UHGV virus genome: UHGV-0119144
Reading direction: 5' to 3' (one strand)
Length of the DNA: 18,430 nucleotides
From: a virus
Made by a program: the position numbers and the translations under genes. Shown here piece after piece: positions 7,514 through 8,731 of this stretch. The notes under the pieces were generated by a model, which was not told the DNA's origin, made no database searches, and saw nothing but the letters and a program-made list of their open reading frames with translations. Position 1 is the first letter of the stretch; the number at the start of each line of letters is the position of its first letter.

Positions 7514-8731
7514 TTAATTACTGGCTGTTTCAGGTTTTGGGAAACTGAACAGTAAATCACGATAGTACTCGTATTGTTTCTGGCGCAACTCGATTTCACG
7601 CGGGAGACCTTCGGTGATGGAGTTGGTCAGGGCGTCGAATTTATCAAGAATAGATACAATTCGTTTTTGTTCAGCTATGCATGGAATTGGGATTCGGAAC
7701 TGTCTAAGATTTGTCAGATTGAGCATTCCATAGTTACGCATTTCAGATTTAAGCGTATTGTATAAATTTGTCAAGAAATAGAATATGAATTTATCAGCAA
7801 TAATATTTTCTTTAGTGGACTTTATGCTGGCTATATTTTGATTGGTTGTTGCTTCAAACTCAAGAAATGCAGTTTTAAATATAGTCGCACCAACAAGTGC
7901 GATTAAAGTGGTATTCTTAGGAAGAAGTTTTGCAGTGGATTTTTTTAATCCTAGCTCGCTTATAAAATATTTCGAAAAATAAACAGGTTTATTATTACAT
8001 GATTCCGATTTTAACCATGGAATTGACCCATTATCCCAGTATTCTGCTTTAGATTTTGAGGGGGTTCCTCCAGCGCAAATATGAAATAACTCTTCATTTC
8101 CCAAAGTTGTCCAATTAACCTCACCCTCTTTAAAACTCAACAACTGGTCGCGATAGTAGTTGTACTGTTTTTTACGCATGTTAAGCTCAGCGGTAAGCTC
8201 AGCGGTAAGCTCAGCGGTAAGTGCAGTAAATTTATCCAGAATCCGAACGATTTCAGACTGGATGGCAAGGGATTTTTCCGGATTATCCGGGCAGGGGATT
8301 GGTACAGGTATATTTTCAACCTGATGACTCATTAACTTGGGGTTTCCCATTCCTGAGTAAACATGTTTTTTGGCTTCTATTGTTAGCCAGTAAAACAGAA
8401 ATTTGTAGATTAATGGGTATTTACTTTTTAATGTAATCAGGCCGCAAACATTAGTTATTGAAAATTTACCTGTTCGATAGAACACAGTGCCTGCATTTGC
8501 GCCATCTGTTGTCCAGCTTATATATTCGCCATCAAAATCGAAGGTATTGATAGAACCTATTTTCCCATTATTTGCAGTTTGAGAGCTATAGACAGGATAT
8601 GGGCCAAAATTTTCAGTTAAATATCCCTTTGACATAACTCTGCCTCTTCTTAAGGCTGAGACTTCCCCCAATGGCAACCACTCAACCTCAACCCCATCCA
8701 GCAATTTTTCCAGATAACTCATCTCGCTCAT
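7514..8731 (-). CDS. hsdS: Type I specificity subunit (HsdS), type IC
   Basis: Conserved N-terminal ([18 protein letters not shown]), central ([31 protein letters not shown]...[14 protein letters not shown]) and C-terminal ([20 protein letters not shown]) regions flank two AT-rich variable target-recognition domains (TRDs); start overlaps the hsdM stop (ATGA). Confidence 0.93.
8185..8220. repeat. 12-bp tandem repeat x3 inside hsdS central conserved region, encoding [12 protein letters not shown]
   Basis: gctcagcggtaa repeated three times on the plus strand; in frame on the minus strand. Confidence 0.9.

Follow-up and report, generated by a model that had tools for sequence, protein, structure and literature searches.

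Three TAEL repeats in the HsdS subunit of a type IC system on a P1-like phage-plasmid, and signs of repeat turnover across the family

A short tandem array in the middle of a gene that specifies a DNA target raises two questions: whether the number of its units determines what the enzyme recognises, and whether that number is fixed in the lineage, switched frequently, or changed only on an evolutionary time scale. Such an array, which encodes the tetrapeptide TAEL three times, lies in the hsdS gene of the virus genome UHGV-0119144, a stretch of 18,430 nt that is here called the window. In our reading, to which we give a probability of roughly 0.85, the array is the length-setting D1 module of an intact type IC HsdS, in which gain or loss of 12 bp toggles the specificity while selection keeps the array at two or three units. 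The spacer-setting role of the TAEL array as such is textbook type IC biology and is not new.

The array reaches a score of 80 in Tandem Repeats Finder (period 12), against 31-39 for five other arrays in the window, and its unit on the coding (minus) strand is TTACCGCTGAGC. At lag 12 it gives 28 consecutive self-matches, whereas 200 first-order Markov resamples of the window averaged 9.2 and never exceeded 13. Read in codon register, (TAEL)x3 occupies 8183-8218 and corresponds to residues 172-183 of the 405-aa HsdS, in the protein context ILDKFTAL(TAEL)3. The original prediction had placed a threefold TAEL repeat at 8185-8220, in the central region of a type IC HsdS. Both points are borne out: 8185-8220 spans exactly three 12-bp units of the perfect array at 8182-8221, and the conserved regions of the protein are nearly identical to those of EcoR124 HsdS, with end-to-end matches for HsdR and HsdM. 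The features of the operon, with the evidence for each in brackets, are as follows.

8182-8221, minus strand: 12-bp tandem array, TTACCGCTGAGC x3.3, 100% matches, no indels (Tandem Repeats Finder, score 80)
7514-8731, minus strand: hsdS, type IC specificity subunit, 405 aa (alignment to EcoR124 HsdS, PDB 7bst_A, E=1e-98)
8663-8731, minus strand: HsdS N-terminal conserved region, aa 1-23 (EcoR124 HsdS alignment)
About aa 24-140 of HsdS, minus strand: TRD1 (EcoR124 HsdS alignment)
8117-8311, minus strand: HsdS central conserved region, aa 141-205 (EcoR124 HsdS alignment)
About aa 206-346 of HsdS, minus strand: TRD2 (EcoR124 HsdS alignment)
7517-7693, minus strand: HsdS C-terminal conserved region, aa 347-405 (EcoR124 HsdS alignment)
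8162-8236, minus strand: D1 helix core, DKF-(17 aa)-RKKQY, which holds the repeat array (sequence)
7571-7645, minus strand: D2 helix core, DKF-(17 aa)-RQKQY, antiparallel coiled-coil partner of D1 (role: PMC3874165)
8728-10290, minus strand: hsdM, 520 aa (EcoR124 M, 7bst_D, 1154 bits, residues 1-520 to 1-520; Pfam HsdM_N, N6_Mtase)
4276-7392, minus strand: hsdR, restriction/translocase subunit, 1038 aa (EcoR124 HsdR, 2w00_A, 2280 bits, residues 1-1038 to 1-1038)
7457-7486, minus strand: promoter-like site TTAACA-18-TATTTT in the hsdS-hsdR gap (consensus scan, weak)

The genes follow each other in the order hsdM-hsdS-hsdR. The stop of hsdM overlaps the start of hsdS in an ATGA (8728-8731), hsdR is set apart from hsdS by a gap of 121 nt, and gene callers place the hsdM start at 10284, which gives a protein of 518 aa. 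Residues 1-405 of the window HsdS align to residues 1-404 of EcoR124 HsdS; the conserved blocks are essentially identical, the TRDs are divergent, and the central conserved regions differ in length only through an additional TAEL in the window. The protein has the architecture of type IC subunits, in which the conserved N-terminus, TRD1, the central region, TRD2 and the conserved C-terminus succeed one another in a layout that begins and ends within D2. Tetra-amino-acid repeats (TAEL, LEAT, SEAL, TSEL) in the central region are characteristic of the type IC family, whose members usually share more than 70% similarity with the family prototype in HsdM and HsdR (PMC10030836); the family was originally defined by genetic complementation and antibody cross-reactivity (PMC3874165). 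In the window we found the HsdM/HsdR similarity, the HsdS architecture, the central tetra-amino-acid repeat and the gene order of this family, together with an EcoR124_C domain (Pfam PF12008) in HsdR. From the near-identity of M and R, complementation of EcoR124 subunits and antibody cross-reactivity with them would be likely. Judged from their sequences, hsdR, hsdM and hsdS are all intact, and the operon belongs to the EcoR124 family of type IC systems, to which it adds a new pair of TRDs combined with three units.

A promoter and terminator scan detected nothing beyond one weak site in the hsdS-hsdR gap. This site (7457-7486) may be a weak candidate for a separate hsdR promoter, for which it is recommended by its position only, because the region has fewer such sites than shuffles.

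The window matches E. coli plasmids of about 95-120 kb at 96-99% identity. The best of them, NZ_CP010179.1, is typed IncY, and a P1/P7 backbone is present in this plasmid and in other top matches. The backbone genes around the hsd operon comprise phd-doc, pdcB (DUF968), lpa, pac remnants, an ash-icd-ant module and the c1 repressor. The hsd operon adjoins phd-doc in all siblings found, at a site beside a variable region that has been described for P1-like phage-plasmids (PMC9603915). On this gene content we regard the hsd system of the window as cargo of a P1-like IncY phage-plasmid. The G+C content of hsdS (38%), hsdR (43.6%) and hsdM (45.7%), set against 48.7% for the rest of the window (operon 4276-10290), is consistent with mobile cargo in the variable region of such an element.

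Several other features of the carrier deserve mention. Its packaging module is degraded (12412-14956): Lpa is truncated, its match covering positions 1-79 of a 148-position profile, only about 100 C-terminal aa of PacA remain (12726-13043), and PacB is split (13043-13519 and 14180-14956) by a fragment of an IS3-family integrase (13444-13986, minus strand). The same packaging layout is found in NZ_CP010179.1, with a full IS3. The window copy of the P1-like element can probably not package DNA. An ash-icd-antirepressor (ORF6N/ANT) module (15040-17532) lies between the pacB remnant and c1; in the related E. coli contig L003, pacB abuts c1 directly. Beside hsdR, at 997-4008, genes are found for a phrog_2111 protein, a NinI-like metallophosphatase, a glycosyltransferase-like protein and a polynucleotide-kinase-like HAD protein. 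A type IC system with PNK-type RNA-repair genes next to it brings to mind the conflict between EcoprrI/PrrC and the PNK of T4, but an anticodon nuclease gene is absent in the window. A fragment of an IS5-family (DUF772) transposase (18040-18429) runs into the contig end and probably explains why the assembly stopped there.

What three units mean for the target can be read from characterised relatives. EcoR124I has two TAEL units, recognises GAAN6RTCG and has an adenine interval of 7 nt, and EcoR124II (EcoR124/3) has three units, recognises GAAN7RTCG and has an adenine interval of 8 nt (PMC3874165). Hybrid enzymes showed precisely the predicted change of spacer (Loenen et al. 2014, PMC3874165). 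Natural strains of N. gonorrhoeae with an NgoAV-type enzyme and one or two LEAT units methylate GACN6TGC or GACN7TGC, respectively (PMC6789123). The claim that two repeats give N6 and three give N7 is thus supported, both by the established rule and by the natural LEAT strains. Strictly, 'N7' denotes the 8-nt interval between the methylated adenines, and the count of N depends on the half-sites. Those of the window enzyme are not GAA and RTCG, because both TRDs differ from those of EcoR124. We rejected an assignment of half-sites from the TRDs, as EcoR124, the sole characterised type IC S subunit compared, has different ones.

Applied to the window, the rule leads to the following picture. The central D1 and the C-terminal D2 would form an antiparallel coiled coil that holds the two TRDs apart, and each TAEL would add about one helical turn and thereby shift the TRDs by one base-pair step. 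With three units, M2S1 would methylate, and R2M2S1 would restrict, a bipartite target whose methylated adenines are, by analogy with the family, 8 nt apart; for half-sites of the EcoR124II, EcoDXXI or EcoprrI type this interval would be 'N7'. The target of the window enzyme would be one bp longer than that of a two-unit sibling that occurs in other E. coli elements. One 12-bp unit would be gained or lost, presumably by replication slippage or unequal crossing-over, and the specificity would be toggled with the TRDs untouched. Over evolutionary time such changes have occurred again and again in the family, and selection would keep functional systems at two or three units, with a single unit as a rare case. 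The survival of a cell that switches would rely on the restriction alleviation that is known for EcoR124I (PMC3874165).

How often repeat number changes in the family was assessed with 154 HsdS proteins that contain DKFxxL(TAEL)n, which were grouped at a threshold of at least 95% identity of both the N- and the C-terminal parts. Among the resulting 78 groups, each a TRD combination, repeat number is polymorphic in seven, i.e. that of the window allele and six others; five of the seven have two versus three repeats, and two have one versus two. L062 and L069, one such pair, share 99.5% identity along 6.3 kb and are separated by one 12-nt gap; their proteins show no other difference. These two IMG/VR contigs of about 100-106 kb encode HsdS proteins of 443-447 aa whose TRD-encoding halves are 80% identical in DNA, from which a nearly symmetric S subunit and a near-palindromic target would be expected. 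Three further HsdS proteins (P0042, P0084 and P0088) and three genome loci with a D1 spacer of 9 aa are single-TAEL alleles, two of which have two-repeat siblings with the same TRDs. The spacer in the targets of single-TAEL alleles would be expected to be one bp shorter than that of the N6 type.

Within E. coli, the central region occurs in 1188 records, which represent 1110 of the 5426 complete genomes in RefSeq. An even sample of 60 hits comprised 26 arrays with three units, 29 with two, one with five and four partial ones, and the indirect identity bands of the E. coli DNA searches agree with this sample. Three repeats are one of two common states in E. coli, about as frequent as two. A view of the three-repeat state as rare, suggested by 110 of the 120 best protein hits having two units, was rejected because the E. 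coli DNA searches give about 40% three; the apparent rarity arises since protein hits are biased toward the TRDs of the query.

Relatives from many phyla carry a tandem 4-aa repeat at the D1 position. Among the matches listed, 149 of 177 TAEL arrays consist of units that are identical in DNA, despite the existence of 21 synonymous versions of the unit. When units were permuted across arrays, on average 20 and at most 35 arrays had identical units, a contrast that is inflated by per-genome codon bias. The pattern suggests that homogenisation acts on the DNA of the units inside each array, and does so across phyla.

Arrays longer than three units were also encountered. The record spans of synthetic 1- and 4-unit queries against E. 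coli genomes led to arrays of five, six and eight units, with perfect 12-bp copies in hsdS numbering five in NZ_CP010234.1 (L009), eight in NZ_CP050031.1 (L010), five in NZ_CP072786.1 (L245) and six in NZ_CM129869.1 (L246). All four arrays of 5-8 units that were examined lie in loci inactivated by insertion sequences, either with IS1 or ISEc45 inside hsdS or with hsdM cut short by IS3 or IS1. Intact systems with four or more units were not seen among the loci examined, a small sample with four long arrays. Taken together, the survey results indicate that units continue to be gained and lost and that selection holds working enzymes at two or three.

The closest view of such a change is offered by the siblings of the window allele itself. 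The best database relatives of the window HsdS, three proteins of 401 aa (P0001-P0003), are the same protein with the same TRDs and two TAEL units. P0001 differs from the window HsdS by the loss of one TAEL and by two substitutions (Y251D and A399V). The plasmid pXD35003 of an E. coli isolate carries an IS5-disrupted copy of hsdS with three units, D251 and V399, so that the proteins of pXD35003 (three units) and P0001 (two units) are identical except for repeat number. P0001 is encoded on the E. coli contig L003 (GCA_001892765.1), in a P1-like phage-plasmid context as in the window, and P0002 and P0003 come from three further samples. These two-repeat forms, the six further polymorphic TRD combinations and the 5-8-unit arrays of inactivated loci support the original prediction that units of the array can be gained and lost.

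Between the window and L003, hsdS differs by five SNPs in 1218 nt (0.41%) and a single 12-nt gap. None of the SNPs falls in the 510 nt of the TRD1 half, and four of the five are in the last 52 nt. The divergence of hsdR (2.0%) and hsdM (2.3%) is about 5-fold higher. Compared with the backbone, the repeat number has therefore changed recently, and the lower divergence of hsdS, with its SNPs clustered at the end, argues that the hsdS segment moved between backbones by recombination. We interpret this pattern as the signature of a cassette exchanged between phage-plasmid backbones via conserved ends.

Given such exchange, the repeat differences themselves might result mainly from homologous recombination or gene conversion with other type IC hsdS genes, a donor D1 being introduced via the conserved flanks of the array. 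The divergence pattern of L003 speaks in its favour, as do the reassortment of TRDs through conserved regions, which is documented (PMC3874165), and the presence of several type IC loci in some E. coli genomes (up to six matching places per genome, median one). We nevertheless consider this explanation unlikely, because sibling pairs display only a clean 12-nt gap in or near D1, with no flanking substitutions. A conversion tract confined to the array would be indistinguishable from unequal crossing-over and would in addition need two exchanges. For the arrays of 5-8 units, which must have expanded where they are, no donor is known.

If units are gained and lost in place, as our preferred reading has it, the change could on the other hand be far more frequent. 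In that case hsdS would be a true contingency locus, comparable to those of phase variation, and populations would contain mixtures of N6- and N7-type (and other) specificities. The perfect DNA identity of the units and the homogenised arrays of the family would fit such a locus, and so would the repeat-number polymorphism on seven of 78 TRD backgrounds, the expansion to 5-8 units once selection is lifted, and the fact that EcoR124 and EcoR124/3 were first found as spontaneous variants (PMC3874165). However, the 405-aa protein occurs in identical form on nine contigs from at least five separate metagenome assemblies, with DNA 99.93-99.96% identical to the window, which argues for stable inheritance over frequent switching. 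Its two-repeat siblings were recovered elsewhere, and among the samples of the window allele and its siblings none was found to contain both the two- and the three-repeat form. Three 12-bp units are also a far poorer substrate for slippage than the mono- to penta-nucleotide tracts of phase-variable hsd genes (PMC7383803). Moreover, a change of specificity with an active HsdR endangers the unmodified chromosome and depends on restriction alleviation (PMC3874165). We regard a high-frequency switch as quite improbable, since the allele recurs unchanged in several samples and three 12-bp units have only a modest potential for slippage.

The stability of the allele across samples could also be taken to mean that three units are a fixed structural feature, the canonical symmetric length of D1, and that switching is irrelevant to this lineage. 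Three units have been termed an apparent optimum, EcoDXXI and EcoprrI also having three (PMC3874165). At three repeats only, D1 equals D2 in length, because both spacers are then 17 aa, as they are in the window. Among the matches listed in the viral, metagenome and genome sets, D2 spacers are mostly of 17 aa, with a minority of 20 aa. The D1 spacers in the same sets of listed matches are of 13 aa at 33, 35 and 39 loci and of 17 aa at 23, 34 and 29 loci, respectively; a spacer of 9 aa is rare and one of 21 aa never occurs. A fixed length of D1 is, however, hard to reconcile with the two-repeat forms of the window allele in four other samples or genomes and with pXD35003 and P0001, whose proteins are otherwise identical. 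This explanation has little chance of being right and, to judge from the sibling alleles, is largely refuted.

That the three-copy array is an artefact of assembly has a negligible probability: the window is a contig from a short-read metagenome (ENA ERZ1755946 NODE_586), but the array, at only 40 nt, is shorter than reads and typical k-mers, independent assemblies agree on it, as evidenced by the identical protein called on the nine contigs, it is also carried by pXD35003, and at least 245 complete E. coli records match a three-repeat query at 99% identity or more.

The reading we prefer, a length-setting array with occasional gain or loss of units under selection, can be extended by a proposal that we put forward tentatively and that is more likely wrong than right: the TAEL array would be intrinsically unstable, held at two or three units by selection and free to reach five to eight once the locus is inactivated, and the toggle between two and three units would create almost identical P1-like siblings that restrict each other's DNA. 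If true, the toggle would represent a cheap diversification of immunity for competing phage-plasmids and their hosts, which would need no new recognition domains. For the locus itself, our preferred reading predicts that the window enzyme reads the half-sites of its two-repeat sibling, one bp further apart. With the same half-sites at this greater distance, the DNA of either phage-plasmid lineage, alike in all else, should be unprotected by the other system and should be restricted by it. The textbook account is not changed by any of these results. What they add is a natural pair of two- and three-unit alleles on P1-like phage-plasmids, together with family-wide signs of a repeat turnover that is bounded by selection; the survey provides a population-genetic picture of a mechanism that has so far been known mainly from a few laboratory enzymes, drawn from the quantised lengths of D1, the recurrence of two/three polymorphism on unrelated TRD backgrounds, the homogenised units and the occurrence of long arrays in inactivated loci only, among those examined.

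Among known systems, EcoR124I and EcoR124II of the IncFIV plasmid R124 are the closest. The matches of HsdR (2280 bits) and HsdM (1154 bits) span the whole proteins, the gene order is alike, the conserved regions of HsdS are identical, and the motif DKFTAL(TAEL)nNMRKKQY is common to both. The window allele and P0001 resemble the pair formed by EcoR124II (three units) and EcoR124I (two units). In contrast, both TRDs are unlike those of the window, and the carrier of EcoR124 is a conjugative IncFIV plasmid rather than a P1-like IncY phage-plasmid. EcoDXXI (TCAN7RTTC) and EcoprrI (CCAN7RTGC) are natural type IC enzymes that, like the window system, have three TAEL units, with an adenine interval of 8 nt (PMC3874165). 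Unlike EcoprrI, the window system has no embedded gene for a prrC-like anticodon nuclease, because the hsdS-hsdR gap is only 121 nt. NgoAV of N. gonorrhoeae likewise is a type IC system with a central tetra-amino-acid repeat in HsdS (PMC6789123), but its unit is LEAT, its relationship is distant, and its specificity also changes when a frameshift truncates HsdS. Phase-variable type I systems such as SpnD39III share the principle that a repeat-mediated rearrangement of hsdS changes specificity or expression, and a survey of these systems names TAEL-length variation as lying outside its analysis (PMC7383803). They use hypermutable tracts of 1-5-nt units, in which frameshifts switch expression on and off, or site-specific inversion (PMC7383803), whereas the 12-bp unit of the window is in frame and alters the spacing only.
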